Assembly: GCA_965202665.1 (NCBI GenBank)
Contig: OZ241841.1
Coordinates: 453,743 to 517,742 of the forward strand
Length of the DNA stretch: 64,000 bases
Reading direction: 5' to 3'
DNA from: Candidatus Spongiisociaceae bacterium
GTDB lineage: Bacteria; Actinomycetota; Acidimicrobiia; Spongiisociales; Spongiisociaceae
A program made the translations under genes and the position numbers. This document shows positions 25,721 to 60,590 of the stretch, in pieces. Under the pieces are notes generated by a model, which did no database searches, was not told where the DNA came from, and saw only the letters and a program-made list of their open reading frames with translations. Numbering within the stretch: the first letter of the stretch is position 1; every line of letters begins with the position of its first letter.

Positions 25721-25777
25721 CTCCTCTTAGGTCGCCAAGAAAGCCGCCGGTTGGCGCGCGGAGCAACCGGGGGTGGG

Positions 25778-28700
25778 TTATGAGCTGGCGCCGGCGTCGT
25801 CGTTGGTGGGGGCTTGGTTTATTACTCTTACGAAGAAAGATGCCATCTGGGCGCGGGTTACCGGGTTGTTGGGGCAGTACCTGAGGGGGGGCGTGGTGGT
25901 GCATCCTCTGGTTACTTCGCTTTCGGCTATGCCTTCGATAGCCCGCACCACGGCCGCGTCCAGGTTGGCGGTGTCGGCGAACAGGTTTTGCGATTCGGTT
26001 ACGGCTTGGATGTGGGGGAAAGCGGCGACCATCATCACGGCCATGTCGGCTCGGGTTACTATGCCCCGGGGGTTGAAGTTCCCATCGTCTAGTTGGAAGG
26101 CCCCGATGCTTACCAGCCAGTCGGCGTAGGGGCGGTAGCTGGCGTCGGCGGGGACGTCGGCGATTTCTATGCCGGTGGGAATTTGGATGGGCCAGCGGGG
26201 GTTGACGGCCCGGTAGATGAAAGTGGCCATTTGCCTGCGGGTGATTTGGGCGCTGGGGCAGTATTTGGTGGGATCGTTGGCGTCGCATCCGACGGTTATT
26301 CCCCATTCGGCCATCAACTCGATGTTTGGTTCGTGGACGCTGCCGTCGTCGTCGCAGAACCGACCCTGGCAGGCCACCGGCGCGGGGGGCGCCACCGGAG
26401 CGACGGGTGCGGCGGGACCGGCCGGGGGCGGGGCCCCTCCTCCGGCGGGGGGCGGGGCTCCTCCGCCTCCGCCTCCTCCACCACCTCCACCGGCGGCGGG
26501 GGGCGGCGCGGCCGGAGGCGGCGCGCTTCCACCCCCACCTCCTCCTCCTCCACCTCCTCCTCCACCACCTCCTCCTCCACCACCTCCGGTGGGTGCGCTT
26601 GGTGTGCTGGTTGGCGGCGGCGGTGGGGGTGTGTATGTGTTGGCGGGAATGGTGAGGGCGGCGGGGGTGATGGTAAATCCGTCGGCGGCGCCGGTTATGT
26701 TGATTCGTTCGGTTGGTTCTCTGGGTATTTGGTCGGTTTTGATGTTGATGGTGAAGGTTCCGGAGCCGGATGATGCCGCGGGGCGGATATTTATGGTGGT
26801 GAGCTGGCTGGTGATTTGGTAGTCGTCGTTGGGGGTGGCGGTGCTGTCGGGGCCGGGGATGGTTATAGCCACGGAAGTGGCTTCAAACCGGGTGGTGGAG
26901 CCGTCCAGCCGGGCGGTGACGGTAACCCGACGGTTGGTTTCTCCTTCAGATAGGCTGGCGGAGGGGCCGACAGTGAGGGTGATGCCGGTGGGTGGATCGT
27001 CGTTGTCTTTGATAGTAAATGCCACGGGTTCGATAGCGATCCCAGCGGAGGTTCCGGTTATTTGTATGGTTTCATCCGGTTCGTCGATGCTGTCATCGGT
27101 GATGGGCAGGCTGAGGGTTCGGGTGGCGCTGTTTTGATTAGCGGAGATGGTCAGCGGGGTGAGGGCGGGGGCGGTGTAGTCGTCTCCGGCGACGGCGGTT
27201 CCACCGAAGGCCAAGGTTACGGTGTGGGCGTTGGGAAGCGTTTCCGTGCCCGGGTAGGCGGCTTGCAGGGTTACGGACGTGCCGGTGTCCCCTTCGGTCG
27301 CTTCAGTTGTTGGGGTGAGGGTTAGCGTGACGGTCAGGTCGTCGTCGATGATGGTGAGGGTGTCTTGCGCGATAGTGAAACCGGCGAGCGTCCCACCGGC
27401 AACGGTTAGCGTTTCCGGCCCCTCGAAGGCGTCGTCGTTATATGTTCCGTCGGTTTTGAGCAGGAAAGTTGCGGTTCCGCTGGTTTCGTAGCCGGAAATT
27501 CGCACGTTGAAGGCATCCACCGTTTCATAGTCGGTTCCCTCAGTTGCTTCCCCAGTAGCCGTTTTGCCGACCACGATGGGTACGAAGGTAGCGGCGGAGC
27601 GGGTGGCGGTACCCTGGAAAGTGGCTACCACCCGCACCCGAATCTCTTGGTTTTCGTGGGCTTGGGTGAGGTGTTCCCCGCTGCTGTCGGCTCGGGTGCT
27701 GTGCAGGGAGAGGGTGACAGCGGTAGGAGGAGCGTCGTTATCGTTCAAAGCCAAAGCGACGGCTACCGTGTGATAATCCACGTTGTTGATGGTTACTTGA
27801 CTGCCGTTGATGACTATCCGTCTCGCCGGTTCATCGACGTTGTCGTCGTTCACCGTGACTTGGATGTCGACGTAGCCGGTTTTAGTACCGGCGGGGATGG
27901 TGATGCCGGTGTCGTATCCGGAGGGAGTTGAGGCTGGTCGGGAGGGCCAAACTATCCGGTAGTCTTCCCGGTTCGTCCAAACGTTGTTGGAGTCCGCGGT
28001 GGCGGTACTGTCCTCGTCTATCTCCAAACCCACTACCACACCCCCGGTAGGGGCGTTCACCGGCAGGGTAGCGGTAACCCGCACAGTGGTTGTTCCGCTG
28101 TTTTCCCCCAATGCGGACAGGGCGTTGTTGTTGGAGGGGTTGGTTAGGGCGAGGGTGATGCCGCTGTCCGCAATGTTGATAGTCGTAGAATCGGAGGCGG
28201 CCGTTCCGGCGACGGTGGCCGAACCGCTGATTTTCACCGTTTCCGCAGTAGTTTCCGCGTCAGTATCAACCCGGGCGGTCAGCTGAAACGACCCCGTATG
28301 ATGATGCTGCCCAGCGGGAATGCGGATAGTGAACGAGTTGCCCGTCTGGTCAGTGCACACATCTTCAGTCATCGACTGAGAACACGCTGTCGCCACCGTA
28401 GCCCCGTTGGTGTCCCCGGCCGCTATTGTTACCGTCACGTCAGTGTTGGTCGCCAGCGCGGAGGAGGTCGCTCCGGCGAACCCGGCGGTTACCGTTACGT
28501 TGTGGGCGCTGGCGCTTTCCGTCACCCTCCCCGGCGAGGCGGTTACCTCCAAAGCGGTGTCGCTGGCCCCGATAGTCAACGTGTCCGGGGTAATCCCCAC
28601 GCCGCTGTTCACCGACGTCCCGGCGATCCTGAACGTTTCCGCCAGCTCGGTTATCGCATCGTCTGTTATCGCTAATCCGGTTAGGTTGGTCCAGGCGCTT

Positions 28701-31700: not shown

Positions 31701-32953
31701 ATCGTCAACCCCGCCAACGTAGCCGAACCCGAAGCAGTAATACTCCGAGCCGGGAAAGAAATCGTATTCGCCGTGGACGGAGCATACGAAAAATCAGCCG
31801 TCGTCGCCTTCCCCGCCCCCGCCGGAGTCTCCGCCGCCGTCGACAGCGTCACTGCCGTCGCCGAAGACAACGCCGAAGACGTCGCGTTCCAAAAACTAGC
31901 CGACACCGACACCCCCGAACCGGAATCCCCCTCAGATATAATGTCTTGATTCCCCATAGCCTCACTATCGGTATCCACCGTCAAATCCACACGACTATTA
32001 GCATCCTTAACAGTTATCGGTGTCTTATACTGGGTCCAATCCGGAACGTCCACCCTAAGATAAAATATCTCGTCCGGCTCCACCTTCCCATCAGTTACCG
32101 TTGTTAAAGAAAGTCTAATAGGTGTGAAAGTTCCGGAAAGAGAGTTGGCGTTTATCGTTACAGACAAAGGATCATTCCAATGATCATGCTGATGATAGAT
32201 ATCGTGGGCACCACTTGTATCCGAGGTGCTTACCGTAGCTGTCCCGCTGTCAATTCTTATTTGCTTATCCGAAATATTTTGGCTGTACGTCGAAGAAGTA
32301 GAAGCAGTGAACACACCGTTAGTCACCCCACCCACGATAGCCTTCGGCGTAGTAAAATTGCCTTTACCATAGTTAATAAAACCCGAAGATTCACCTTCTT
32401 TTAGCTCCGACAATACTAAATAATTCGATGGTACAACTACCTTAACCGCCCGGTCCTGATCGGTAATCGTCAAAGTAGCCGGAGCCACCCTATACCCAGA
32501 AGGGCCGGTGCCGGAGAAAATGATGGTCTCATGCTCTTCCGTAATCCTATCCGACCGCAAATCCATCGTAAAACTATTAGACGTAACACTCCTTTGATTC
32601 CTATGAATAGTTACATTCCAAGGCTCACGAGTACAGTAATCACCAGAATTGCAAACATATCTCGGAGGACGACCCGGATCAAACCTATTCACATTTATAG
32701 TCGCTCCTTGAGTGGCTGTACCGGATAACCTACTGATGCTAATCCGCAAATCGGAGGACGGCGCCGAGGCCACCGACGCCTTCAACCGCAACACCTTCGA
32801 ACCGCTGTCCTCCCCCACCGAAGTCACCGCGTTGCCCGAAGCATCAACCACACTGAACGTAATAGTCGTCTGCGCCCCCACCACCGCAGGCGCGGCCGGC
32901 AACAGTGACAGGACCAAACCCGCCGCCAACGCCAACAGCCCCAGCCGTCGCAT
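25778..32953 (-). CDS. Giant SLH-anchored cell-surface protein, paralog A (signal peptide, Calx-beta-like repeat array, poly-Gly/Pro linker, 3 C-terminal SLH domains)
   Basis: ORF 25778..32980. The real start is the ATG at 32953 (MRRLGLLALAAGLVLSLLPAAPAVVGAQT) after GGAGGTTGGGTG. The ~100-aa repeats carry ...DY...F..GET...TI.DDD..E..E.. motifs. The C-terminus reads FCDDDGSVHEPNIELMAEWGIT...ITRRQMATFIYRAV / ...VTRADMAVMMVAAF / ...VTRAQMASFFVRVI, which is three SLH domains. Confidence 0.85.
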   Translation of the reverse strand: MRRLGLLALAAGLVLSLLPAAPAVVGAQTTITFSVVDASGNAVTSVGEDSGSKVLRLKASVASAPSSDLRISISRLSGTATQGATINVNRFDPGRPPRYVCNSGDYCTREPWNVTIHRNQRSVTSNSFTMDLRSDRITEEHETIIFSGTGPSGYRVAPATLTITDQDRAVKVVVPSNYLVLSELKEGESSGFINYGKGNFTTPKAIVGGVTNGVFTASTSSTYSQNISDKQIRIDSGTATVSTSDTSGAHDIYHQHDHWNDPLSVTINANSLSGTFTPIRLSLTTVTDGKVEPDEIFYLRVDVPDWTQYKTPITVKDANSRVDLTVDTDSEAMGNQDIISEGDSGSGVSVSASFWNATSSALSSATAVTLSTAAETPAGAGKATTADFSYAPSTANTISFPARSITASGSATLAGLTITDDAIVEGPETFLVGGSSVLGSATADTLTIYDNDADIELEVSPLSVDEQATAQQVTVTARFKGSSSILTTATTVTVSVAGSGGASLGSSCPTTSGQDACTSLTNNQMTVSIPAGGTSGSGTFMVTVPDDSTSESGENLTLSGSASVGGAAVAVESVDLPIVDVGTRVDLSLHEATAGEAALGGIAEGGGAETVRVKATAGAMVSSDTTISVNVGAAGGTATLGTCTGSGQSRSCSSGDYDRGAATVDVTIASGETSGTADVTITPLSDTVAEGEETVQFTGSATGFRVVPVDLKIMEEITLTLSQSSVGEGATNAGAASVTAAFAGASTSTLTGATVVTLSFGAGENGEAADFTAPGTAITVSIPASSTSSSATALTGLLITSDSIAEGEEKIDVGGTADGFVVSGTELAITDDDLGVTLTADTDSASGVQQTLPEGEEAAVRVRARFTSATTNDLTAAYTVQVTAGEGSPVSATGGGVDFTAPGAAATVTMPVGTALQSGWVNLTGLSVADDTIAEGAETFLITGTATGGTVVAETVTIVDDDVDVSLSASPAEVVERTADHQIMVTARFQGATSVLSAATPVTVTVGSGDTSGATVHTAVCSTMTMTADVCTNQTGNQFTVSIPAGDVSGSGSFQLRARVDGDDTEGIEYLKLTGSTSIGQVASAQMGVFDPGRAVTLSFHQATSAAPALSGITEDGGAQTVRVKATLGAAASSSATVMVNVGAAGGTAALGATGDYTRGSSTATITIASGQTSGTADVVLTPRDDGTVEGAETIRFTASATGGYLPAVADLPILETITLALSQSTVDERDANAGAVTVTASFAGASSSSLTQATDVTLSFGAGENAEATDFTAPGTAVTVTIPAGSTSSSAVALSGLLITGDAIAEDAESIDIDGTAGGFAVSGTTLVITDDDLEVTLTADTDGVESGNQKTLSEGSTVAVRVRAAFTTATSNDIGSALQVRVTAEALSPASAEAGGIDFTPPATPVTVSIPAGQTQSAWTNLTGLAITDDAITELAETFRIAGTSVNSGVGITPDTLTIGASDTALEVTASPGRVTESASAHNVTVTAGFAGATSSALATNTDVTVTIAAGDTNGATVATACSQSMTEDVCTDQTGNSFTIRIPAGQHHHTGSFQLTARVDTDAETTAETVKISGSATVAGTAASDSTTINIADSGITLALTNPSNNNALSALGENSGTTTVRVTATLPVNAPTGGVVVGLEIDEDSTATADSNNVWTNREDYRIVWPSRPASTPSGYDTGITIPAGTKTGYVDIQVTVNDDNVDEPARRIVINGSQVTINNVDYHTVAVALALNDNDAPPTAVTLSLHSTRADSSGEHLTQAHENQEIRVRVVATFQGTATRSAATFVPIVVGKTATGEATEGTDYETVDAFNVRISGYETSGTATFLLKTDGTYNDDAFEGPETLTVAGGTLAGFTIAQDTLTIIDDDLTVTLTLTPTTEATEGDTGTSVTLQAAYPGTETLPNAHTVTLAFGGTAVAGDDYTAPALTPLTISANQNSATRTLSLPITDDSIDEPDETIQITGTSAGIAIEPVAFTIKDNDDPPTGITLTVGPSASLSEGETNRRVTVTARLDGSTTRFEATSVAITIPGPDSTATPNDDYQITSQLTTINIRPAASSGSGTFTINIKTDQIPREPTERINITGAADGFTITPAALTIPANTYTPPPPPPTSTPSAPTGGGGGGGGGGGGGGGGGGGGSAPPPAAPPPAAGGGGGGGGGGGAPPPAGGGAPPPAGPAAPVAPVAPPAPVACQGRFCDDDGSVHEPNIELMAEWGITVGCDANDPTKYCPSAQITRRQMATFIYRAVNPRWPIQIPTGIEIADVPADASYRPYADWLVSIGAFQLDDGNFNPRGIVTRADMAVMMVAAFPHIQAVTESQNLFADTANLDAAVVRAIEGIAESEVTRGCTTTPPLRYCPNNPVTRAQMASFFVRVINQAPTNDDAGASS

Positions 32954-33004
32954 CACCCAACCTCCATCTTTCGCTTCCACCCGTATCAGGGCCGATTACG
33001 AAAA

Positions 33005-33032
33005 ACGCTACCCCCCCCCCCCAATTTGTCAA
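33005..33032 (-). promoter_or_regulatory. Promoter-like element of paralog A: TTGACA-aatt-G12-TAGCGT (16-bp spacer)
   Basis: The + strand reads acgcta C12 aatt tgtcaa. It lies ~52 nt upstream of the start codon. The same element precedes all five paralogs with G-tract lengths of 11-13. Confidence 0.5.
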
Positions 33033-33074
33033 ATCAAACCTCGATGAAGGCGTCTTCTATGTTGCTTATGTTCC

Positions 33075-36000
33075 TCAGTTCCCGCCGGTGGCGGCGGGGG
33101 CGAGGTTGACGGCGCGGACGAAGAAAGAGGCCATCTGCGCTCTGGTTACCGGTTTGTTCGGGCAGTAGTTGAGGGGGGTGGTGGCGCAACCTCTGGTTAC
33201 GCCTCTGCCGTACATTCCTTCAATAGCCCGGATGATGGCGGGGTCTAGTCCTGTTGCGTCTTGGAAGAGGTTTTGGGGTTCTTCCACGGATTGGAGGTGG
33301 GGAAAGGCGGCGATCATCATGATGGCCATATCGGCCCGGGTTACCACACCGCCGGGGTTGAAGTTTCCGTCGGTGAGCGCGAAGGCGTTTACGGAGACGC
33401 CCCATTCGGCGTAGGTGCGGTACCAAGCATCGGCTGGAACATCGCTGATTTCTATGTCCTCGGGGGGTTGGATGGTCCAGCGTTGGGAGACGGCGCGGTG
33501 GAGGAAGGCGGCCATTTGCCTGCGGGTGATTTGGGCTCCGGGGCAGTATTTGGTGGAGTCTTCGGTGTCGCAGCCGAGGGTGATTCTCCATCCGGCTATC
33601 CGTTCGATGTTGGCTTCATGGACGCTGCCGTCGTCATCGCAGAACCGGCCCTGGCAGACCGGTTCGGGGGGAGGCGCAGGGGCCGGCGGGGGCGCGGCGG
33701 GCGGCGGGGTGCCGCCTCCTCCCCCTCCGCCTCCACCTCCCCCGCCGCCGCCTCCTCCTCCGCCGCCGCCTCCGCTACCCCCTCCGCCGCTGGGGCTGGG
33801 GGGCGGGGCGTCGTTGGCGGGGATGGCGAGGGTGAGGGTGGCGGGGCTGGGGGTTAAACCGGCTGGGGCGGTGGCGGTGAGAACGATTCGTTCAGCTCGT
33901 TCTGGGGTGTTGTCGTTGATGATGGTTATGGTCAGGTTGGGGGCCTGGGTTTGCCCGGCGGGAATGACCGCGGTCAGGTTGCTTATCCGATAGTCGGAGT
34001 TACGGATGGCGTCTCCGCCGAGGCTGAAGGTAACGGCGGTGTCGGTGGAAAGCGGGTTCGATCCGGCGGGGAAGCGGGTAGCGATAGCGGCGGTGGCGCC
34101 GGTAGTTTCAGCCACGCTGGTTCGGGAGAGGCTGATTTGGACGCTGGTGGGCGGAGCGTCGTTGTCTTTGATGGTGAGCGTAGCCGGTTCGACGGTGAAC
34201 CCGGCCAGCGTTCCGATTATCTGCAAGGTTTCGTCCCCTTCGGCGATGTTGTCGTCGGCCACGGCGGACAGGGTGATGGTTTGAGGGGTAGCGCTGTTTT
34301 GGTTAGCGGAGATGGTCATATCAGCAAGCGCGGAGGCGGTGAAGTCAGACGAAGAAGCGGTACCCCCGTAGGCCAGACTGACGGTCTGGGAAGCACCTAA
34401 AGTTTCCGTACCCGGATAGGCGGCCCGCAGGCTTAGAGTGATGTTGGCGTCCCCTTCGGTCACCTCGTCTGGCGTGACGGCAAGAATAACAGTCAGGTCA
34501 TCGTCGAGGATGGACAGCGTGTCCTCCCCGATAGTGAAACCGGCGAGGGTCCCCCCGGCGACGGTCAACGTTTCCGGCCCCTCAAAAGCCGCATCATTGT
34601 ATGTTCCATCAGTTCTAAGAACAAAACTGCTAACCCCGCTGGATTGGTAAGCGGGAATGGCAACAGTAAAGTCGCCTACCGTTTCGTAATCCGTTCCCTC
34701 AGTGGCCTCCCCGGAAGGCTTTCCGACCACAATCGGCACGAAAGTAGCGGCGGAACGGGTGGCGGTTCCTTGAAAAGCGGCCCGTACCCGCACGGTGGTG
34801 CTTGTTCCGCCTTCGGGTACTTGGGTCAGCTCCGCTCCTACCTCGCCGCCGTCATCTTCATAAAGAGAGACATCGATGACGGTAGGAGGAGAATCGTTGT
34901 CGTTTAGGGTCAAACTGGCATCTACCGTCTGGTAGGTGTCGGCGCTGATAGTTACATCACTGCCTTCGAAAAGAATGGTCTTCGCCGGTTCGGCAACGCT
35001 GTCGTCATTTACAACAATGGTGACATCAGCGAAACTGTTGGTGCTTCCTTGGGCGATGGTGATGCCGGTGGAGTATCCGCCGGGAGTTCCGGTCGGTTTG
35101 GAGGGCCAAGTCACACGGTAGTCCTCCCCATCCGCCCATACGTTGTTAGAGGCCGCAACGGCGGTACTGCCCTCGGCTATTCTCAGGCCTACTACCACTC
35201 CACCCGAGGGGACGGTGACCCCGGTGGGCAGGGTAGCGGTCACCCGTATAGTGGAGGATCCGCTGTTCTCATCCAACGCAGACACGGAACTCCCGGACTT
35301 AGCCAGAGTGAGGGTGATGGCGCTGTCTACTACGTTGATAGTGTCAGTATCTGACTCCGATTCTCCAGCGACGGTGGCGCTTCCGGTTATTTTCACCGTT
35401 TCAGTGGTGGCTTCCTGTGTTCCATCGTCCCGGGCGGTCAGCTTGAATGTTCCCGTATGGCTGACTTCCCCGGCGGGGATGGTAATGGTAAACGAGTTGC
35501 CCGTCTGATCGGTGCAAACATCGTTCTGACCGATCGCGGAGCACGACGCCGCCATCGTCGCCCCGTTGGAATCCCCGGCCGCTACCGCCACCGTCACATC
35601 GGTGCCCGCCGCTAAAGCGGAGGAGGACGCTCCCGCGAACCCGGCGGTTACCGTAACATCATGGGCGGCGCCGCTTTCATACACCGTTCCCGGCGACGCG
35701 GTGACTTCCAAAGCGGTGTCGCTAGCCCCGATAGTCAACGTGTCCGAAGTTACCGTCACGCCGCTTCTCCCAACAACAGTACCGGTGATGGCAAACGTTT
35801 CCGCCGCCTCGGTCTCCGCGTCGTCTGCAACCGACAAGCCCGACAAGTTCACCCAAGGGCTTGCCAGACTGCTTTGCCCGGCGGGGATGGACACCGTGAC
35901 CGGCGTAGCGGGAGCGGTGAAATCAACACCACCGCCCGCCGCTGACTGCGGCGACGAAACCCCGGCGGTGACGCGCACCTGCAGAGCGGATCCTAAATCG

Positions 36001-38636: not shown

Positions 38637-38687
38637 CACCCAACCTCCAATCCTCCACACGGCGCCGCGAACCGGCACCCTACGCAA

Positions 38688-38714
38688 ACGCTACCCCCCC
38701 CCCCAATATGTCAA
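38688..38714 (-). promoter_or_regulatory. Promoter-like element of paralog B: TTGACA-tatt-G11-TAGCGT (15-bp spacer)
   Basis: The + strand reads acgcta C11 aata tgtcaa. It is a variant with the duplicated -35 region TTGACTTGACA. Confidence 0.45.
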
Positions 38715-38855
38715 GTCAATCCCCCGCGCCAAGCGGTCGCGTAAACCGGGACATGTCAGTTGCGATGACCGCACCTTCCTGCACGTTGGGCTGTAACTCC
38801 GCTTAGGTCGCCAAGAAAGCCGCCGGTTGGTACGCGGAGCGGAGGGGGGCGGGGG

Positions 38856-45926: not shown

Positions 45927-45982
45927 CACCCAACCTCCATCTTCGCTTCCGGTCCAACCCGTAAACGGGACCGATGCGAAAA

Positions 45983-46011
45983 ACGCTACCCCCCCCCCCC
46001 AATTTGTCAAA
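45983..46011 (-). promoter_or_regulatory. Promoter-like element of paralog C: TTGACA-aatt-G13-TAGCGT (17-bp spacer)
   Basis: The + strand reads acgcta C13 aatt tgtcaa. Confidence 0.5.
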
Positions 46012-46092
46012 TTAAGCCTCCGCGCCAGCGGAGGCGTTGAACCACTTTGCGCCGTTTCCCCAATTAGGCCACCTTTTGAACAGGAGGGTGGG

Positions 46093-52000: not shown

Positions 52001-53241
52001 GACCCATTACCGCTCTTCACCGCGCCAGCGGGAATAGAAAACGTGCTCGCAGACGACGAAACATAATTGACATCCGCGTCCCCCGCCTCCCCCGCCGCCG
52101 GCGAAGCCTTCTCATCCACCGACAAAACAGCCGTCGTCGCCGACGCATGAGTCGACGACCCAACCCCATCCGGCCACCCCGCCCACGCCACCACCCCCGA
52201 ACCCGACGCCCCCTCCGCCAACACAGACTGATTCCCCTCAGTTTCACTATCGGTGTCCACCCTGAACACCACCTGCGAATCCACCAAATCCCTAATAATC
52301 ACCGGGCCTCTCTCCACCGTAAACCCCGCGACAGAGCCATAAACCCCTAACCGTATGTGCACCCGGTCCGCATCTGCGGTATTATTCGCATGCAAACCGT
52401 AATAATAATTACTGGTGGTAGAGGTTAACCTACCACCCGAAAAGTTTAAAAACCTCTTTTCTGATGGGTGCCATTTATTTCTTGAATTTATGCCTGAAGA
52501 GATAGTGCCAAGCTGTATAAAGTGATTCCACACCTGTACTGAGTTTGCCGGATCGAGTGATTTGTTCTGAGTTTGTATTGTTCCTGTGTATGTAGAAGAT
52601 GTAGAAGAAGTGAACCGGCCACCCGACAAACCTCCCAAAGTACCAGTAGCATTAACATAAATTCTATTTTGATACGTAGCCGCCTCGTATACCACAATCG
52701 GGCTGATTTTGATAGTCCGATCCTGATCCGTAATAGTCAAATCAGTCGGAGAGACCGTATACCCAGCAACGGTGGTAGTACCGGTCAACCGGATTGTCTC
52801 ATGATCCTCTGTAATCCTATCCGACCGCAGAAAGAGTGTAGCGTCAAAAGGATAAGTATAGCTAGTAGCACCCGCCCTAATAGTTATACTAGGAGGCGCG
52901 CCCCTAATACAGTAATCACCAGCAGAGCAAACCCACCTCGAAGGACGACCCTGTCTTCGCTCCTCGTAAGATGTCGCATCACGCGCTACTCCTTGAGTGG
53001 CGGTACCACTTATCAAAGAATTGACATTCACCCGCAAATCGGAGGACGGCGCCGAGGGCACCGACGCCTTCAACCGCAAAGCCTTCGTACCGCTGTCCTC
53101 CCCCACCGAGGTCACCGGGTTGCCCGCAGGATCAACCCAACTGAGCGTAATCGCCGTCTGCGCCCCCACCACCGCAGGCGCGGCCGGCAACACCGACAGG
53201 ACCAAACCCGCCGCCAACGCCAACAGCCCCAGCCGCCGCAT
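46093..53241 (-). CDS. Giant SLH-anchored cell-surface protein, paralog D
   Basis: 2382 aa, starting MRRLGLLALAAGLVLSVLPAAPAVVGAQTA. It is nearly identical to paralog E over most of its length. It has a (G)18 linker and an A/D/E-type SLH anchor. Confidence 0.85.
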   Translation of the reverse strand: MRRLGLLALAAGLVLSVLPAAPAVVGAQTAITLSWVDPAGNPVTSVGEDSGTKALRLKASVPSAPSSDLRVNVNSLISGTATQGVARDATSYEERRQGRPSRWVCSAGDYCIRGAPPSITIRAGATSYTYPFDATLFLRSDRITEDHETIRLTGTTTVAGYTVSPTDLTITDQDRTIKISPIVVYEAATYQNRIYVNATGTLGGLSGGRFTSSTSSTYTGTIQTQNKSLDPANSVQVWNHFIQLGTISSGINSRNKWHPSEKRFLNFSGGRLTSTTSNYYYGLHANNTADADRVHIRLGVYGSVAGFTVERGPVIIRDLVDSQVVFRVDTDSETEGNQSVLAEGASGSGVVAWAGWPDGVGSSTHASATTAVLSVDEKASPAAGEAGDADVNYVSSSASTFSIPAGAVKSGNGSLAGLSVVDDAVVEGPETLTFGGGTSSLGSEYTIAESELTIYDDDADIELGWSLSSVEEQAAARQVTVTARFKGSSSILTTATAVAVSVAGAGGASLSSACPVAGGNDACTSLTGNATTISIPAGGTSASATFSVTVPDDGAGESGEKLRVSGSASVGGSAVVVESADLPIIDAGTKVNLSFHEAAAGEAVLAGIAEDGGAQTVRVKATAGAAVTSDTTISVNVGSAGGTATLGTCTGSGPGRSCTSGDFDPGSGTVDVTIASGESSGTADATITGLSDTVVEGAETIRFTGSAAGFTIFPADLKITETIELTLSQSSIGESATNAGAATVTAAFAGASSSTLTGATAVTLSFGAGEEAETLDFTAPGAALTLSIPAGSTSSSAAALTGLLITGDTIAEGEEKIDVGGTADGFGVSGTELTITDDDLGVTLTADTDSATGEQQTLPEGETAAVRVRAAFTTATTNDLSAAYQIQVTAGEGSPVSATGGGVDFTAPGAAATVTIPTGTALQSGWVNLTGLSVADDTIAEGAETFLITGTATGGATVASEKVTIVDDDVDVTLSASPTGVVEQAAAHQITVTARFQGATSVLSAATPVTVTVGAGDTNGATVDSAVCSITPTAADVCTNQTNNQFTVSIPAGDLNASGSFQLQARNDMDNNEDIENLKLTGTTTIGSVTPAQLEVYDPTRALTLSFHEPSSDAPALSGITENGGAQTVRVKATLGKAAASNTTVTVNVGAAGGTATLGATGDYTRGAATAPITINSGDTSGTADVVLTPRDDGTMEGAETIRFTASATGYLPAVAVADLPILETIVLALSQSTVDERDANAGAVTVTASFAGVSSSSLTQATDVTLSFGAGENAEAADFTAPGTAVTVTIPASATTSSAVALSGLLITGDTIAEDAETINIDGTAGGFAVSGTTLVITDDDLDVTLTADTDGVESGNQKTLSEGETVAVRVRAAFATATSNDLGSALQVRVTAEALSPASAEAGGIDFTPPATPVTVSIPAGQTQSAWTNLTGLLVTDDAVTELAETFRIAGTSGNSGVGITPDTLTIGASDTALEVTASPGRVTESTDAHNVTVTAGFAGATSSALATNTDVTVTVAAGDSNGATVATACSPLMTEDVCTDQTGNSFTIRIPAGQHHHAGSFQLTARVDTDAETTAETVKISGSATVAGTSTSDAATINIADSGIRLALTNPSNSSAVSALAENSGTTTVRVTATLPVNAPTGGVVVGLEIDEDSTATADSNRVWTNREDYRVAWPSKPSGTPSGYAAGITIAAGTKTGYVDIDITVNDDNVDEPARRIIIDGSHVTINNVDYHTVAAALTINDNDGPPTAIILSLHSTRADSSGEHLTEAHENEETRVRVVATFQGTATRSAATFVPIVVGKTAAGEATEGTDYETVDAFNVEIPGYQNSGTDTFLLKTDGTYNDNNFEGPETLTVAGGTLAGFTIAQDTLTLIDDDLTVTLTLTPNQGTEGDTNTSVTLQAAYPTGETLPNPHTINLAFGGTAVAADYTAPALTPLTILANQNSATRTLSLPITDDSIDEPDETVQITGTSAGITIEPAAFTIKDNDDPPTGITLTVNPASLPEGQTNRQITITARLDGTTTRSEATSVAITIPGPDSTATPNDDYQITNQPTTITIRPATQTGSATFNITIPNTDGPEPNETLQITGTAADFTITPAVLTIRNSAPPPPPPPPPTSTPSAPTGSGGGGGGGGGGGGGGGGGAPPPAAPPPAAGGGGAPPPAGGGAPPPAGPAPPVAPPPAPVVCQGRFCDDDGSVHEPNIALMAEWGITIGCDANDPTKYCPSAQITRRQMATFIYRAVNPRWPIQIPTGITINDVPADASYRPYANWLVSIGAFQLNDGNFNPRGIVTRADMAVMMVAAFPHIQAVSESQNLFADTANLDAAVVRAIEGIAESEVTRGCTTTPPLRYCPNNPVTRAQMASFFVRVINQAPTTTGES

Positions 53242-53298
53242 TCTCCAACCTCCATACTCGCTTCCGGCCAGCCCGTAAAACAGGACCGATTACGGGAA

Positions 53299-53325
53299 AC
53301 GCTACCCCCCCCCCCAATTTGTCAA
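53299..53325 (-). promoter_or_regulatory. Promoter-like element of paralog D: TTGACA-aatt-G11-TAGCGT (15-bp spacer)
   Basis: The + strand reads acgcta C11 aatt tgtcaa. Confidence 0.5.
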
Positions 53326-53364
53326 ATCAACCCCCGATGAGGGCGTCGACGTTGCCTAGCTGGC

Positions 53365-56300
53365 TCAACCCGATTCTTCGGTGGTGGTGGGGGCTTGGTT
53401 GATTACTCTTACGAAGAAGGACGCCATCTGGGCGCGGGTTACCGGATTGTTGGGGCAGTATCTGAGAGGCGGCGTGGTGGTGCATCCTCTGGTCACTTCG
53501 CTTTCGGCTATGCCTTCTATGGCCCTTACCACGGCCGCGTCCAGGTTGGCGGTGTCGGCGAACAGGTTTTGGGATTCGGATACGGCTTGGATGTGGGGGA
53601 AAGCAGCTACCATCATGACCGCCATGTCGGCTCGGGTTACTATGCCCCTGGGGTTGAAGTTCCCGTCGTCTAGTTGGAAGGCCCCGATGGATACTAGCCA
53701 GTTGGCGTAGGGGCGGTAGCTGGCGTCGGCGGGGACGTCGTTGATTGTTACGCCGGTGGGGATTTGGATGGGCCAGCGGGGGTTGACGGCGCGGTAGATG
53801 AAGGTGGCCATTTGCCTGCGGGTGATTTGGGCGCTGGGGCAGTATTTGGTGGGGTCGTTGGCGTCGCATCCGATGGTTATTCCCCATTCGGCCATTAGCG
53901 CGATGTTGGGTTCGTGGACGCTGCCGTCGTCGTCGCAGAACCGACCCTGACAGGCCACCGGCGCGGGAGGCGGCGGTGCGGGCGCGGCGGGCCCAGCCGG
54001 GGGTGGGGCCCCTCCTCCTGCGGCGGGAGGCGGGGCTCCGCCTCCTCCTCCTCCGGCGGCGGGGGGCGGCGCGGCCGGCGGCGGCGCGCCTCCACCGCCT
54101 CCTCCGCCGCCGGTGGGTGGGTTGGGGGTGGTGGTTGGTGGCGGCGGGGGCGGGGGCGGGGGTGCGCTGTTGCGGATGGTGAGAACGGCGGGGGTGATGG
54201 TGAACCCGGCGAGGGTTCCGTTTATTTGGAGGGTTTCGTTTGGTTCGGGGCCGTCGGTGTTGGGGATGGTTATGTTGAAAGTTGCGGTTCCGGTTTGCGT
54301 TGCGGGGCGGATGGTTATGGTGGTGGGCTGGTTGGTGATTTGGTAGTCGGCGGGGGTGGTGGTGCTGTCGGGGCCGGGGATGGTTATAGCCACGGAGGTG
54401 GTTTCAGATCGGGTGGTGGAGCCGTCCAGCCGGGCGGTGATGGTGATCTGACGGTTGTTTGCTCCTTCGTCTAAGCCGGATGGGCTGGTGGTGAGGGTGA
54501 TGCCGGTGGGTGGGTCGTCGTTGTCTTTGATAGTGAAGGTGGCGGGGGTGATAGTGATTCCGGCGGAGGTTCCAGTTATCTGTACGGTTTCATCCGGTTC
54601 ATCGATGCTGTCATCGGTGATAGGCAAGCTGAGGGTTCGGGTAACGCTGTTTTGATTAGCGAGGATGGTTAGGGGGGTGAGGGCGGGGGCGGTGTAGTCG
54701 GCTCCGGCGGTGGCGGTTCCTCCGAGGGCCAGGGTTATGGTGTGGGGGTTGGGGAGGGTCTCCCCGGTCGGGTAGGCGGCTTGTAGGGTTACGGACGTGT
54801 TGGTGTCTCCTTCGGTCCCTTGGTTCGGGGTGAGGGTGAGTGTAACGGTCAGGTCGTCGTCGATGAGGGTGAGGGTATCTTGCGCGATCGTGAATCCGGC
54901 GAGCGTTCCACCGGCGACGGTTAGCGTTTCCGGGCCCTCAAAGTTGTTGTCGTTGTATGTTCCGTCGGTTTTGAGCAGGAAAGTATCGGTGCCGCTGTTT
55001 TGGTAGCCGGGGATTTCCACATTGAAGTCGGCTACCGTTTGGTAGTCGGTTCCTTCGGTGGCTTCCCCGGTTTTGCCAACCACGATGGGGACGAAGGTGG
55101 CGGCGGAGCGGGTGGCTGTTCCCTGGAAGGTAGCTACCACCCGCACCCGGGTTTCTTCGTTTTCATGGGCTTCGGTGAGGTGTTCCCCACTACTGTCGGC
55201 CCGGGTGCTGTGCAAGGTGAGAGTGACAGCAGTGGGAGGGCCGTCGTTGTCGTTGATGGTGAGAGCGGCGGCTACCGTGTGATAATCCACATTGTTGATT
55301 GTTACATGACTGCCGTCGATGATTATCCTTCTTGTCGGTTCGTCGACGTTGTCATCGTTTACCGTAATATCTATATCCACGTAGCCGGTTTTGGTACCGG
55401 CGGCGATGGTGATACCGGTGTTGTAGCCGGAGGGGGTTCCGCTCGGTTTAGAGGGCCAGGCCACTCGGTAGTCTTCCCGGTTGGTCCAAACCCGGTTGGA
55501 GTCCGCGGTGGCGGTGCTGTCCTCGTCGATCTCCAAACCCACCACCACACCGCCGGTAGGGGCGTTCACCGGCAGGGTAGCGGTAACCCGCACAGTGGTT
55601 GTTCCGCTGTTTTCCGCCAACGCGGACACCGCGCTGTTGCTGGAGGGGTTGGTCAGGACAAGCCGGATGCCGCTGTCCGCGATGTTGATAGTCGTAGAAT
55701 CGGAGGCGGCTGTTCCGGCGACGGTGGCCGAACCGCTGATTTTCACCGTTTCCGCAGTAGTTTCCGCATCAGTATCAACCCGGGCGGTCAGCTGAAACGA
55801 CCCCGTATGATGATGCTGACCAGCCGGAATGCGGATAGTGAACGAGTTGCCCGTCTGGTCGGTGCACACATCTTCAGTCATCGACGGAGAGCATGCCGTC
55901 GCCACCGTCGCTCCGTTGGAATCCCCGGCCGCTACCGTAACCGTCACGTCGGTGTTGGTTGCCAGCGCGGAGGAGGTCGCTCCGGCGAACCCGGCGGTGA
56001 CCGTTATGTTGTGGGCGTCGGTGCTTTCCGTCACCCTCCCCGGCGACGCGGTTACCTCCAAAGCGGTGTCGCTGGCCCCGATAGTCAACGTATCCGGGGT
56101 AATCCCCACGCCGCTGTTCACCGACGTCCCCGCGATTCTGAACGTTTCCGCCAACTCCGTCACCGCATCATCCGTAACCAACAGGCCCGTCAAGTTCGTC
56201 CAGGCGCTTTGGGTTTGCCCGGCGGGGATGGACACCGTGACCGGGGTGGCGGGAGGGGTGAAATCTATTCCCCCCGCCTCAGCCGACGCCGGCGACAAAG

Positions 56301-59300
56301 CCTCCGCGGTCACGCGTACTTGCAGAGCGGATCCTATATCGTTGCTGGTAGCAGTCGTGAACGCGGCTCGTACCCGCACCGCAACCGTCTCTCCCTCCGA
56401 CAAAGTTTTCTGATTCCCGCTTTCCACGCCGTCAGTATCCGCCGTCAGGGTCACTTCTAGATCATCGTCTGTGATAACCAGCGTCGTTCCGCTAACCGCA
56501 AACCCCCCAGCGGTACCGTCGATGTCAATACTCTCCGCGTCCTCCGCGATGGTGTCCCCCGTAATCAGCAAACCGCTCAACGCAACGGCGGAGCTGGTGG
56601 TGGCGGAGGCTGGGATGGTCACCGTGATCGCGGTGCCCGGGGCGGTGAAATCCGCCGCCTCCGCGTTCTCACCCGCCCCGAACGACAAGGTTACGTCGGT
56701 GGCCTGGGCGAGCGAGGAACTGGACGCCCCCGCAAAAGAGGCGGTAACAGTCACGGCTCCGGCGTTGGCGTCTCTTTCATCCACCGTGGACTGACTGAGG
56801 GCCAAAGTGATCGTCTCCAGGATCGACAAATCAGCGACCGCGGGCAGATACCCGCCGGTAGCGGAAGCGGTGAAACGAATAGTTTCCGCCCCCTCAATCG
56901 TCCCATCATCGCGGGGAGTGAGTACGACATCCGCCGTCCCACTGGTTTGGCCGCTAGCGATGGTGATAGTCGCCGTGCTACTCCCGCGGGTGTAATCCCC
57001 AGTCGCTCCCAAAGCGGCGGTTCCGCCCGCAGCCCCTACATTTACAGTCACCGTGGCTGACGACGAAGCGGCTGCGCCGAGGGTGGCTTTCACCCGCACC
57101 GTCTGCGCCCCCCCATCCTCGGTAATCCCCGACAAGGCCGGAGCGGCGCTGGTCGGCTCATGGAAAGACAAAGTAACCGCCCGACCCGGATCGAAAACAC
57201 CCATCTGAGCGGACGCCACCTGACCTATAGAAGTAGAACCAGTCAGTTTCAAATACTCGATACCCTCAGTGTCATCCCCATCGGCGCGGGCCCGCAGCTG
57301 AAAAGAACCCGAACCGCTGACATCCCCGGCGGGGATGCTGACCGTGAACTGATTGTTCGTCTGGTTAGTGCACACATCCGCTGTCATCGTCATCGTAGAA
57401 CATACCGCGGTATGCACCGTCGCGCCGCTGGTGTCCGCCGACCCAACCGTTACCGTCACCGGAGTAGCCGCCGACAACACCGAAGTAGCCCCCTGAAAAC
57501 GGGCCGTTACCACTATCTGATGATCCGCCGTCCGTTCCACCACCTCCGCCGGCGACGCCGACAAAGACACATCCACATCATCATCAACGATAGTTATCGT
57601 CTCCGCAACCACCGTCCCGCCTGTCGCGGTACCGGTGATGAGAAAAGTCTCCGCTCCCTCCGCTACCGTGTCATCCGCCACCGACAGGCCGGTGAGATTC
57701 ACCCAGCCGCTTTGCAGGGCGGTTCCGACGGGCATAGTCACCGTCGCAGTCGTGCCGGGGGCGGTGAAATCAACACCCCCGCTGGTCGCCGACACCGGAG
57801 AACCCTCCTCCGCGGTCACCTGAACCGTATACGCGGCGGTCAAGTCGTTGGTAGTAGCTGATGTGAACCGGGCCCGTACCCGTACCGCCGCCGCCTCACC
57901 CTCCGGCAGGGTTTGCTGCTCCCCGTTCGTGCCGCTATCGGTGTCCGCCGTTAACGTAACCCCCAGATCATCGTCGTTTATGGTCAGCTCCGTTCCGCTC
58001 ACCACAAACCCATCCGCCGTCCCCTCAACATCGATTTTCTCCTCCCCCTCCGCGATCGAATCAGACGTAATCAGCAAACCGGTCAGAGCGGTAGCGGAAC
58101 TGGAGGTGGAAGAAGCCGGAATACTCACCGTGATCGCGGTGCCGGGAGCGGTGAAATCCAACGTCTCCGCGTTCTCGCCCGCCCCGAACGACAACGTAAC
58201 AACCGTCGCCCCCGTCAACATCGAAGTAGCAGCCCCCGCGAACGCGGCCGTCACCGTGGCCGCCCCCGCGTTCGTCGCGCTCTCGCCTATTGACGGCTGG
58301 CTGAGGGTCAACGTAATCTCTTCGGTGATTTTCAAATCCGCGGGGAACACGGCAAACCCGGCGGCGGAACCGGTGAACTGAACCGTTTCCTCCCCCTCCG
58401 CCACCGTATCCGACAAAGGAGTAATAGTCACATCCGCCGTCCCGGAAGTCTCACCCGACGCAATCGTCACATCCACCGTCGCCGCCCCCCGATCGTAGTC
58501 GCCGCTTGCGCAAGACCGGGACTGTCCGCTACCCGTGCATGTCCCCAAAGTCGCCGTACCCCCCGCCGCCCCCACATTCACGCTAATCGTCGTATCCGAG
58601 GTCACCGCCGCTCCCGCCGTAGCCTTCACCCGCACCGTCTCCGCCCCCCCACCCTCCGCTATCCCCGCCAGCGCCGCCTCGCCCGCCGTCGCTTCATGCA
58701 ACGACAGATCCACCCGCGTCCCCACATCCACAATCGGCAAATCCACCGACTCCACCGTCACCGCCGTCCCGCCCACCGACGCCGAACCCGACAGCGTCAG
58801 CTTCTCCCCCGACTCGCTCGTACTATCATCAGGAACCGTCACCATAAACGTGCCGGTCCCCGACGTCGCACCCGCCGGAATAGACACCGTCATCTGATTA
58901 TTAGTCAAACTAGTACAAGCATCGTTCGTATTCGCCGGACACCCCAAAGAAGCCCCACCCGACCCCGCCACCGACACCGTCACATTTGTAGCAGTCGTCA
59001 GAATCGACGACGAACCCTTAAACCGGGCGGTCACCGTAACCTGCTGCGACCCCGCCTGCTCATCCACCGACGACGGAGACACCTCCAACTCAATATCAGC
59101 ATCGTTGTCATATATCGTCAACGTGTCCGCCGTAGCGGTTCCCAAAGCCGACGACCCACCCACCTCAAAAGTTTCCGGTCCCTCCACAATCGTATCATCG
59201 GTGATCGTCAAACCAGCCAACGTAGCCGAACCCGAAGCAGTGATACTCCGAGCCGGGAAAGAAATCGTATTCGCCATCGACGGAGCATACGAAAAATCAG

Positions 59301-60504
59301 CCGCAGTCGCCTTCCCCGCCCCCGCCGGAGTCTCCGCCGCCGCCGACAACGTCACCGTCGTCACCGAAGAAATTTGCGACGACGTCGCGTTCGGAAAACT
59401 AGCCGACACCGACACCCCCGAACCGGAATCCCCCTCCGTCAACACATCCTGATCCCCTATAGCCTCACTATCGGTATCCACCGTCAAACCCACCTGACTA
59501 TTAGCATCCTTAATCGTAACCGGAGCCCTTAACACCGTCCAACCTGACGGGACGGATTGCAACCCAACATAAAAAACCTCATCCGACTCCGCCGCCTCAT
59601 CCCTCATAACTAGTGAAAAGAAAAAAACAAGAGGGCTATCTACGCCGTGAAAACTCCCAGAAACCTGACCGGCGGTTATCCTCGCACCAATAGGATCATC
59701 ATTGTTACTATTATGGGATGAAACGACATCCGCAGGAAAATCATCATTTGAATTGACCGACTGCAGATGGGTAGCGGTTCCCGCCTCTGTCACTATTCGC
59801 ATAAGCCTCGTATCTCCCCTCTGTTGGTACGCTAAATCTTGGCCGTACGTTGAAGAAGTAGAAGCAGTGAACACACCACCCTTCACCCCACCCACCACAA
59901 CCGATGGCCCAGGTCTATGTAGAAAACCATGAGCACGGTTATCACCGGCTGGCGTAACCTGATCCTCCCGCAACACATCCCGCGATAAGTTCACCTTAAT
60001 CACCCGGTCCTGATCGGTAATCCTCAAAGTAGCCGGAGTTACCGTATACCCAGAAGCGGAACCGGAAAAAATGATGGTCTCATGCTCCTCCGTAATCCTA
60101 TCCGACCGCAGTTCAATCGTAAAATTAGTAGACGTAACACTTGTTTGATTCCTATGAATAGTTAAATTCCAAGGCTCATTAGCACAGTAATCACCAGAAT
60201 TGCAAACAAGCCTCGGAGGACGGTGCCGATCATACGCATTCAAATTTACACGCACTCCTTCAGTGGCAGTACCGGATAACGCCCTGATGCTAATCCGCAA
60301 ATTGGAGGACGGCGCCGAAGCCACCGACGCCCTCAACCGCACAACCTTCGAACCGCTATCCTCCCCCAGCGTGGTCACCGCGTTACCCGAAGGATCAACC
60401 ACACTGAACGTAATCGCCGTCGCCGCCCCCACCACCGCAGGCACGGCCGGCAACACCGACAGGACCAAACCCGTCGCCAACGCCAACAGCCCCAGCCGTC
60501 GCAT
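53365..60504 (-). CDS. Giant SLH-anchored cell-surface protein, paralog E
   Basis: ORF 53365..60507. The start is the ATG at 60504 (MRRLGLLALATGLVLSVLPAVPAVVGAATA). It has Calx-beta-like repeats, a short Gly linker and three SLH domains. Confidence 0.85.
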   Translation of the reverse strand: MRRLGLLALATGLVLSVLPAVPAVVGAATAITFSVVDPSGNAVTTLGEDSGSKVVRLRASVASAPSSNLRISIRALSGTATEGVRVNLNAYDRHRPPRLVCNSGDYCANEPWNLTIHRNQTSVTSTNFTIELRSDRITEEHETIIFSGSASGYTVTPATLRITDQDRVIKVNLSRDVLREDQVTPAGDNRAHGFLHRPGPSVVVGGVKGGVFTASTSSTYGQDLAYQQRGDTRLMRIVTEAGTATHLQSVNSNDDFPADVVSSHNSNNDDPIGARITAGQVSGSFHGVDSPLVFFFSLVMRDEAAESDEVFYVGLQSVPSGWTVLRAPVTIKDANSQVGLTVDTDSEAIGDQDVLTEGDSGSGVSVSASFPNATSSQISSVTTVTLSAAAETPAGAGKATAADFSYAPSMANTISFPARSITASGSATLAGLTITDDTIVEGPETFEVGGSSALGTATADTLTIYDNDADIELEVSPSSVDEQAGSQQVTVTARFKGSSSILTTATNVTVSVAGSGGASLGCPANTNDACTSLTNNQMTVSIPAGATSGTGTFMVTVPDDSTSESGEKLTLSGSASVGGTAVTVESVDLPIVDVGTRVDLSLHEATAGEAALAGIAEGGGAETVRVKATAGAAVTSDTTISVNVGAAGGTATLGTCTGSGQSRSCASGDYDRGAATVDVTIASGETSGTADVTITPLSDTVAEGEETVQFTGSAAGFAVFPADLKITEEITLTLSQPSIGESATNAGAATVTAAFAGAATSMLTGATVVTLSFGAGENAETLDFTAPGTAITVSIPASSTSSSATALTGLLITSDSIAEGEEKIDVEGTADGFVVSGTELTINDDDLGVTLTADTDSGTNGEQQTLPEGEAAAVRVRARFTSATTNDLTAAYTVQVTAEEGSPVSATSGGVDFTAPGTTATVTMPVGTALQSGWVNLTGLSVADDTVAEGAETFLITGTATGGTVVAETITIVDDDVDVSLSASPAEVVERTADHQIVVTARFQGATSVLSAATPVTVTVGSADTSGATVHTAVCSTMTMTADVCTNQTNNQFTVSIPAGDVSGSGSFQLRARADGDDTEGIEYLKLTGSTSIGQVASAQMGVFDPGRAVTLSFHEPTSAAPALSGITEDGGAQTVRVKATLGAAASSSATVTVNVGAAGGTAALGATGDYTRGSSTATITIASGQTSGTADVVLTPRDDGTIEGAETIRFTASATGGYLPAVADLSILETITLALSQSTVDERDANAGAVTVTASFAGASSSSLAQATDVTLSFGAGENAEAADFTAPGTAITVTIPASATTSSAVALSGLLITGDTIAEDAESIDIDGTAGGFAVSGTTLVITDDDLEVTLTADTDGVESGNQKTLSEGETVAVRVRAAFTTATSNDIGSALQVRVTAEALSPASAEAGGIDFTPPATPVTVSIPAGQTQSAWTNLTGLLVTDDAVTELAETFRIAGTSVNSGVGITPDTLTIGASDTALEVTASPGRVTESTDAHNITVTAGFAGATSSALATNTDVTVTVAAGDSNGATVATACSPSMTEDVCTDQTGNSFTIRIPAGQHHHTGSFQLTARVDTDAETTAETVKISGSATVAGTAASDSTTINIADSGIRLVLTNPSSNSAVSALAENSGTTTVRVTATLPVNAPTGGVVVGLEIDEDSTATADSNRVWTNREDYRVAWPSKPSGTPSGYNTGITIAAGTKTGYVDIDITVNDDNVDEPTRRIIIDGSHVTINNVDYHTVAAALTINDNDGPPTAVTLTLHSTRADSSGEHLTEAHENEETRVRVVATFQGTATRSAATFVPIVVGKTGEATEGTDYQTVADFNVEIPGYQNSGTDTFLLKTDGTYNDNNFEGPETLTVAGGTLAGFTIAQDTLTLIDDDLTVTLTLTPNQGTEGDTNTSVTLQAAYPTGETLPNPHTITLALGGTATAGADYTAPALTPLTILANQNSVTRTLSLPITDDSIDEPDETVQITGTSAGITITPATFTIKDNDDPPTGITLTTSPSGLDEGANNRQITITARLDGSTTRSETTSVAITIPGPDSTTTPADYQITNQPTTITIRPATQTGTATFNITIPNTDGPEPNETLQINGTLAGFTITPAVLTIRNSAPPPPPPPPPTTTPNPPTGGGGGGGGAPPPAAPPPAAGGGGGGAPPPAAGGGAPPPAGPAAPAPPPPAPVACQGRFCDDDGSVHEPNIALMAEWGITIGCDANDPTKYCPSAQITRRQMATFIYRAVNPRWPIQIPTGVTINDVPADASYRPYANWLVSIGAFQLDDGNFNPRGIVTRADMAVMMVAAFPHIQAVSESQNLFADTANLDAAVVRAIEGIAESEVTRGCTTTPPLRYCPNNPVTRAQMASFFVRVINQAPTTTEESG

Positions 60505-60561
60505 CACCCAACCTCCATCCTTCGCTTCCGGCCCAACCCGTATCAGGACCGACTACGAGAA

Positions 60562-60590
60562 ACGCTACCCCCCCCCCCCAATTTGTCAAA
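60562..60590 (-). promoter_or_regulatory. Promoter-like element of paralog E: TTGACA-aatt-G13-TAGCGT (17-bp spacer)
   Basis: The + strand reads acgcta C13 aatt tgtcaa. Confidence 0.5.

Follow-up and report, generated by a model that had tools for sequence, protein, structure and literature searches.

Why does a sponge symbiont keep five giant surface-protein genes side by side, each behind its own run of guanines? The question is raised by a 64,000-nt stretch of the genome of a Candidatus Spongiisociaceae bacterium (Acidimicrobiia; contig OZ241841.1, positions 453,743 to 517,742), hereafter the window, in which positions 25778–60504 hold five tandem minus-strand genes for giant proteins, A–E. 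The reading that we favour, and regard as probable, is a contingency-locus family for surface variation of the porA/vlp type, made up of paralogues that have recombined with one another. The five giant open reading frames (ORFs; 1870–2400 aa) described in the first-pass annotation were recovered, all unbroken, at 25778–32980 (A), 33075–38687 (B), 38856–46010 (C), 46093–53241 (D) and 53365–60507 (E). Start codons were placed at the ATGs at 32953, 38636, 45926, 53241 and 60504 (MRRLG/MRRLA), each of which has a GGAGG Shine-Dalgarno sequence 7 nt upstream and opens a typical signal peptide (MRRLGLLALAAGLVLS...AQT). The genes counted from these starts span 25778–32953 (A, 2391 aa), 33075–38636 (B, 1853 aa), 38856–45926 (C, 2356 aa), 46093–53241 (D, 2382 aa) and 53365–60504 (E, 2379 aa).

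All five genes are preceded by one and the same cassette, TTGA(T/C)TTGACA(A/T)ATT-G11/12-TAGCGTTT, followed by a leader of 50–57 nt, GGAGG and the ATG. On the minus strand, its core lies at 33005–33032 for A (TTGACA-AATT-G12-TAGCGT; G tract 33011–33022), 38688–38714 for B (TTGACA-TATT-G11-TAGCGT; 38694–38704), 45983–46010 for C (G12; 45989–46000), 53299–53325 for D (G11; 53305–53315) and 60562–60589 for E (G12; 60568–60579). The -35 box, TTGACA, is perfect, and TAGCGT conforms to the TANNNT form of the actinobacterial -10 box. The predicted -35/-10 spacer is 15 or 16 nt long and consists mostly of the G run. A 34-nt core is invariant across the five genes, whereas the surrounding intergenic DNA is only ~60% identical. 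The five promoter G tracts are also the only homopolymers of at least 9 bases in the window, where the next longest is a single G8 (13687–13694).

The cassette was sought in one genome per species as TTGACAWATT followed by G9 or more. In the complete chromosome of another Candidatus Spongiisociaceae member, an acidimicrobial sponge symbiont (OZ251578.1), the exact cassette with TAGCGT occurs at least 21 times, distributed over 13 regions that include five arrays of 2–3. The PGM genes of this chromosome and of the window are 82% identical, which makes the two organisms relatives. Homologous giant proteins with a signal peptide and the same SLH anchor follow 17 of the 21 cassettes (one of them reduced to a 42-aa remnant); of the other four, two lead into related secreted proteins and two into a different SLH/FG-GAP surface protein. 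All tracts on this chromosome are uninterrupted, with 11 or 12 Gs and in one case 19. The same combination of cassette and gene is present on sponge-metagenome contigs in ENA, which were reached through protein matches and also served for the population comparisons; scanning of JGI metagenome contigs for the cassette returned nothing. Across the window, OZ251578.1 and the ENA contigs, the 29 cassette copies have uninterrupted tracts of 11, 12 or 19 within variable flanks.

Individual loci among these relatives differ in what follows the promoter. In the segment 3080001–3088000 of OZ251578.1, a G11 promoter at 5111 is followed by a 42-aa ORF in which the family signal peptide is fused to the last 14 residues of the SLH3/anchor region (..FFVRAVNYTPPTDN), which is what a deletion left of a whole gene. 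Two other loci of this chromosome hold a copy truncated after 395 aa (L024) and the copy with the G19 tract (L033). A poly-G promoter also precedes a 1177-aa protein with SLH (79 bits), FG-GAP and Big_1 domains (L039, 2288–5923; L012, OZ251578.1), so the cassette is not confined to the Calx-beta family. The closest relative of B (ENA PANK22-1, SAMN12290283, scaffold_162, 9916–15575; L048) is 85–90% identical at the nucleotide level, has a G11 tract and the TATT variant, and stands alone between coaE and uvrB, outside any array; family members thus occupy different chromosomal sites in related strains.

Outside the Spongiisociaceae, the combination TTGACA-(A/T)ATT-poly-G with a -10-like box, mostly similar to TATAAT, recurs in unrelated metagenome-assembled genomes (loci within L001–L047) of Patescibacteria, Absconditabacterales/SR1, rabbit-gut Bacilli (26% GC, seven loci in one bin), Clostridia and Planctomycetota. 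The search pattern preselected this design, and the recurrence is accordingly not a measure of enrichment. A downstream ORF of at least 50 aa was readable at 16 of the 27 loci, often starting with a signal peptide or an N-terminal membrane helix, and multi-copy families lie downstream in the Bacilli and Clostridia bins.

Two observations bear on whether G runs change length in this lineage. The poly-Gly runs in the linkers of the five proteins (6–22 residues) comprise 105 Gly codons; GGG, the commonest Gly codon overall (36%), accounts for only six of them and is never used twice in succession (binomial P 2.5e-13), and the longest coding G run in the five genes is 5 nt. This avoidance suggests that G runs are mutable in the organism, being avoided where slippage would be harmful and retained where they would act as switches. 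The second observation comes from a sister subfamily (P0015/P0016) with the same SLH anchor, in which the G tract lies within the signal-peptide codons rather than in the promoter. Its orthologues from different samples, 92.6% identical at the nucleotide level, carry G12 with an intact signal peptide (L050, 10060–10071) and G13 with a frameshifted one (L053, 391–403). Next to the G12 copy is a gene for a 2656-aa protein with a G17 tract upstream, at 1779.

A simple repeat of another kind is found in the window outside the array. Three tandem paralogues of HmaB-type DNA adenine methylases (3158–12360, minus strand; PADLOC E down to 0; DUF1156), 73–82% identical to each other, occupy a stretch of lower GC (0.53–0.58). 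The first copy is split by (GT)12 at 5571–5594, the sole such repeat in the window, so that its N-terminal 150 aa and the other 792 aa are in different frames; loss of one repeat unit would fuse both. Judged by its sequence, this copy looks like a phase-variable gene that is now OFF, suggesting that the organism makes general use of simple-sequence contingency loci.

Promoter homopolymers of this kind have well-described counterparts. In porA and opc of Neisseria meningitidis, as in the array, a G/C homopolymer of ~9–13 nt separates the -35 box from the -10 box of a gene for a surface protein. There, one-base changes in length alter the spacing and hence expression, which for porA is high with 11G, two-fold lower with 10G and 13-fold lower with 9G (PMC3639595); the same would be expected of the array by analogy. 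The settings differ in that the host here is a monoderm actinomycetotal sponge symbiont and not a proteobacterial pathogen, that the products are 240 kDa wall-anchored fibres and not porins, and that the cassette is present in five tandem copies, with 20 or more in the genome of the relative. In system layout, the closest match is vlp of Mycoplasma hyorhinis, a cluster of paralogous surface-protein genes that are separately transcribed, each from a promoter with its own homopolymer, and that vary in size as internal repeats are gained and lost (PMC10502178). In vlp the tract is poly-A and the products are small lipoproteins with neither SLH nor Calx-beta domains, whereas the internal repeats of the array are whole 115-aa domains and 500-aa super-repeats.

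With a tract in the -35/-10 spacer of every copy and the same arrangement conserved in relatives, contingency-locus variation is the best reading of these promoters. The proposal of the first-pass annotation that they form a programmed variation system is therefore upheld as far as the tracts and their family-wide occurrence are concerned, whereas switching itself is what we infer from them. Several results weigh against this reading. TAGCGT agrees with TATAAT at only three of six positions, and spacers of 15–16 nt are below the usual optimum of 17 nt. Because of this -10 mismatch, the cassette was missed by a generic sigma-70 promoter scan, whose sites were no more numerous than in shuffled controls. 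In two orthologous comparisons between samples (B with L048; L049 with L051), all promoters had G11 and hence equal lengths. Folding of the intergenic regions gave nothing beyond shuffled sequences except for an 8-bp hairpin with a U-rich tail upstream of the C promoter; with terminators this weak elsewhere, read-through between genes may occur. No known RNA in the window was detected with Rfam, hence no riboswitch or leader family in the 5' untranslated regions.

The strongest competing explanation is a static paralogue family in which the G run is a fixed promoter element (a rigid spacer, a G-quadruplex or a factor-binding site), lengths of 11 and 12 are either fixed or consensus errors, and no switching takes place. 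The near-restriction of tracts to these two lengths and their constancy between orthologous promoters agree with it, as does the well-established error rate of assemblies at homopolymers. Against it count the G19 tract of one paralogue, the sister gene that is in frame with G12 in one sample and frameshifted with G13 in another, and the strong avoidance of G runs in coding poly-Gly, which implies that they are mutable; moreover, a homopolymer at the same promoter position does act as a switch in porA and vlp. We therefore consider a static family unlikely, although it deserves more weight than any other alternative, and retain contingency-locus variation as the probable interpretation.

What these promoters would vary is indicated by the architecture of the proteins. 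Each begins with a signal peptide and one Calx-beta repeat, followed by a variable module, here called the tip, by the remaining repeats (14 more in A), by a Gly/Pro-rich linker and by a C-terminal triple SLH domain. Iterated profile searches within the five proteins delimited repeats of ~115 aa, 15 each in A, C, D and E and 11 in B. Segment-wise BLAST, in contrast to an uninformative self-BLAST of whole proteins, showed that repeats 2–13 are three copies of a four-domain super-repeat of ~500 aa each, with 40–67% mutual identity. B follows the plan of A with two super-repeat copies where the others have three.

The identity of the repeats, called Calx-beta in the first-pass annotation, was decided by fold comparison. 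Whole-protein bit scores for Pfam Calx-beta (PF03160) are borderline in A (26.5), B (28.1) and C (29.2) relative to the gathering cut-off of 27; D and E have no match at E<=0.01, and single repeats score 10.7–18.9 bits, under the threshold. A profile of 41 repeats searched against PDB sequences was likewise not significant for Calx-beta (NCX1 at E 0.4). An AF2 model of one repeat (A, aa 1873–1985; 26999–27337, minus strand), built from the 41 paralogous repeats, reached a pLDDT of 95.7. Of its 27 best PDB matches, 26, including the top 20, are CBD1/2 of CALX, CBD1/2 of NCX1 or the Calx-beta domain of integrin beta4 (best E 5e-6, TM 0.6–0.7); the one exception, at rank 21, is the CLIPPER domain of a fibrillar adhesin. 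Precomputed PF03160 annotation is also found on most of the 120 homologues listed (E 1e-45 to 1e-295). On the modelled structure, the stalk repeats have a Calx-beta fold.

Gly/Pro-rich linkers of 50–86 aa connect the stalk to the anchor on the minus strand at 26372–26629 in A, where 20 consecutive Gly codons avoid GGG, and at 33657–33806, 39435–39623, 46678–46911 and 53953–54162 in B, C, D and E. The following ~195 aa contain three SLH-like motifs, encoded on the minus strand at 25781–26371 (A), 33078–33656 (B), 38859–39434 (C), 46096–46677 (D) and 53368–53952 (E). The anchors are of two types, as reported earlier: type 1 in A, D and E is marked by HEPNI(E/A)LMAEWGIT and type 2 in B and C by HEANIERIAGWRITLG, and over the last 100 alignment columns A–D and A–E are 94% and B–C 90% identical, versus 67–70% in cross-type pairs. 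Pfam SLH (PF00395) matches all five proteins at 29–32 bits (cut-off 20.8); of the motifs taken in isolation, SLH2 scores 25.6 and SLH3 17.1 bits, and SLH1 is undetected. The AF2 model of the last 197 aa (pLDDT 87.3) was matched by Foldseek to the whole three-SLH domain of Bacillus anthracis Sap (3PYW; E 2e-8, 179/178 columns, TM 0.68/0.74) and to the 6BT4 and 6CW*/7SV* entries of Paenibacillus SpaA-SLH. The earlier assignment of a C-terminal triple SLH domain is borne out by both searches, and in the model it is a complete, Sap/SpaA-like one. The positions of the TRAE-type ligand-binding motif are occupied by TRRQ, TRAD and TRAQ; csaB, the pyruvyl transferase gene associated with a pyruvylated secondary cell-wall polymer, was not found in the window.

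The overall plan points to a wall-anchored fibrillar protein with its N-terminal tip distal from the cell. Fifteen tandem Ig-like domains with a tip fit a fibrillar adhesin, which would share only the SLH anchor with S-layer proteins, and the suggestion that the array encodes a dominant S-layer finds no support in this architecture, which is not that of a lattice protein. Known fibrillar adhesins and giant Calx-beta proteins likewise combine a tandem Ig-like or Calx-beta stalk with a distinct terminal module and an envelope anchor.

The tip itself is a module of ~160 aa without recognisable repeats between repeats 1 and 2, bracketed by the conserved motifs LTITDQDR and TVDTD. It is encoded on the minus strand at 31982–32449 in A (aa 169–324), 37644–38120 in B, 44940–45407 in C, 52264–52716 in D and 59485–60003 in E. 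Tips of four very different kinds (A/C, B, D, E) occur among the five genes, with 25–48% mutual identity; the tip of A is 94% identical to that of C and 25–48% to those of B, D and E, and that of D is the most divergent of all (25–30% aa identity to the other four). The ratio of nonsynonymous to synonymous divergence (dN/dS) is ~1 over the first 160 codons, 0.5–0.75 in the variable module and 0.1–0.35 in stalk and anchor. This increase toward the N terminus identifies the distal tip as the fast-evolving part. The module is scarce in public data, where 72 of 1.84 billion cluster representatives match it and ~20 have the full N-terminal layout.

Comparison of the five genes in 100-column protein windows and 300-nt codon windows, the sliding-window check proposed by the first-pass annotation, confirmed that they are mosaics, the closest pair shifting along their length. 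A and C share a tip module that is 92–97% identical, and in aa columns 201–400 A–C identity is 92–96%, compared with 35–48% for A–E and 22–31% for D–E. The N-terminal sharing claimed for A and C thus holds, except that the peptide quoted for it differs at two residues. C accordingly joins an A-type tip to a B-type anchor. Through the middle of the stalk, E is 92–99% identical in aa to A, whereas in the 3' half D is closest to E and A is next; the 3' half of the stalk and the anchor of D are close to those of both E and A. D and E, described earlier as near-identical throughout, are in fact 81% identical overall, with 22–49% in columns 101–500 and 88–98% only from about column 1300 on. In the quartet A, C, D and E, the informative sites favour AE|CD in nt 1–600 and 2701–3900 and AC|DE in nt 601–1200 and 5101–6600, a heterogeneity along the genes with a chi-square of 224 (24 df, P 3e-34). 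For most pairs, the runs of matching polymorphic sites are longer than in all permutations. The 3' flank of A at the end of the array (25700–25777) is homologous to that of C (38780–38855; ..ACCAACCGGCGGCTTTCTTGGCGACCTAAG.GGAGTTACAGCCCAACG.GCAGGAA) despite the different anchor types of the two genes, so the unit of duplication extended beyond the genes into the DNA downstream, and the flanks share in the mosaicism.

Could the mosaic have arisen from old duplications and uneven divergence, with blocks under purifying or diversifying selection, or from misalignment of internal repeats, and not from gene conversion? The proteins are internally repetitive, with their 500-aa super-repeat, and dN/dS does differ along the genes. 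However, synonymous divergence (dS) for A–C is 0.07 in the tip and 0.7–0.8 in the stalk, and since dS itself varies tenfold within one pair, selection alone is insufficient as an explanation. The closest pair also differs by block, topologies switch sharply with 40–80 informative sites per block, and anchor and tip types occur in all combinations. Uneven divergence is therefore quite improbable, and the sequence comparison shows that past recombination among the five copies is the source of the mosaic. The super-repeat missing from B and the 42-aa remnant on the related chromosome also speak for recombination. A more remote explanation still, that array or mosaic is an assembly artefact of collapsed or expanded copies or chimeric joins, can practically be dismissed: a 35 kb run of paralogues in a probably metagenome-derived genome invites the suspicion, but no exact run exceeds 114 nt between any two copies, shared blocks are 92–97% and not 100% identical as chimeric assembly would have it, all five ORFs are intact, and ENA contigs as well as an independent complete chromosome also have arrays of 2–3 such genes.

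The same figures count against recent exchange. Exact runs common to two copies reach 114 nt at most, identity peaks at 97% among the 300-nt windows and at 92–97% (nucleotide level) in the best shared blocks, and dS does not fall below 0.07. Long identical tracts, which recent or ongoing exchange would leave, were looked for among the five copies and none was seen, so that of the earlier claim of ongoing gene conversion the reticulate ancestry is retained and the word 'ongoing' is not; the exchange is not recent.

Contingency-locus variation and recombination may be combined into one mechanism. Each ~240 kDa fibre would be fixed to the cell wall by its C-terminal triple SLH domain, and the Gly/Pro linker and the Calx-beta stalk would hold the divergent N-terminal tip at a distance from it. 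When the DNA is replicated, slipped-strand mispairing would lengthen or shorten a tract by one G and change the -35/-10 spacing and with it promoter strength, so that every gene could switch independently and reversibly and each cell would display its own subset of fibres. Homologous recombination among the copies, through gene conversion and unequal crossing-over, has in the past reshuffled tips, stalk segments and anchors and altered stalk length by whole four-domain super-repeats. The benefit would lie in escape from recognition of the tip by phages, sponge phagocytes or host recognition molecules, or in changed binding by the tip; the fibres could accordingly serve to evade phages, to escape sponge phagocytes or to vary adhesion. 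Variation by a diversity-generating retroelement or an invertase was considered and rejected, the flanks of the array containing neither reverse transcriptase nor recombinase.

The genes flanking the array encode an APH kinase, GAPDH, a DAO oxidoreductase and PGM, with no recombinase, reverse transcriptase or invertible element next to it. The GAPDH-like ORFs form an adjacent minus-strand pair (62401–63420 and 63417–63995), the second of which reaches the window edge. The closest nuclease-like gene, a DUF222/HNH endonuclease gene (1062–2387, minus strand), is 23 kb off. A B12-binding radical SAM gene is encoded on the plus strand at 13992–15335.

Wall-bound proteins with variable repeat regions and stochastic switching, as proposed here, are also represented by CwpV of Clostridioides difficile, which has been linked to phage resistance, and by sap of Campylobacter fetus. 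Both differ from the array in that a promoter or leader is inverted by site-specific recombination. The literature searched on giant and symbiont Calx-beta proteins made no mention of SLH anchoring, tandem mosaic arrays or homopolymer promoters, and our searches returned nothing relevant on phase variation in sponge symbionts or on SLH proteins of Acidimicrobiia. The mechanistic class, contingency loci together with a recombining surface multigene family, is already known. New is its setting in an uncultivated mutualist of the Acidimicrobiia and in a protein family flagged as symbiosis-associated, of which we found no report in the literature searched.

A wider and far more speculative extension, which we hold to be doubtful, is that the five genes belong to a genome-wide, combinatorial surface contingency regulon specific to sponge-symbiotic Acidimicrobiia, in which at least 20 SLH fibres, mostly of Calx-beta type, would stand under the same poly-G switch and form a continuously varied, host-mimicking coat against sponge phagocytes or against phages that filter feeding concentrates. 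Calx-beta proteins are statistically enriched in sponge-associated Acidimicrobiia (PMC11706023), and the aggregation and allorecognition factors of sponges are themselves built of Calx-beta domains (PMC5400394), which makes host mimicry an attractive, if speculative, idea. If such a regulon were real, phase and antigenic variation would be at work in a mutualistic animal symbiosis instead of in a pathogen.

Sponge symbiosis has no better statistical marker in genomes than 'eukaryotic-like' surface proteins, Calx-beta proteins among them, and on/off promoters built on homopolymers are familiar from pathogens and so far not from sponge symbionts. If slippery promoters and recombination do act together as proposed, the symbiont would vary its surface stochastically, as mucosal pathogens do, and phase variation by promoter homopolymers would then include the Acidimicrobiia, and with them a lineage that is uncultivated and not pathogenic. 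The vague correlation between Calx-beta proteins and symbiosis would then become testable, through the fibres that are ON in situ, through differences in the ON set between host individuals or after phage blooms, and through the ligands of the tips.

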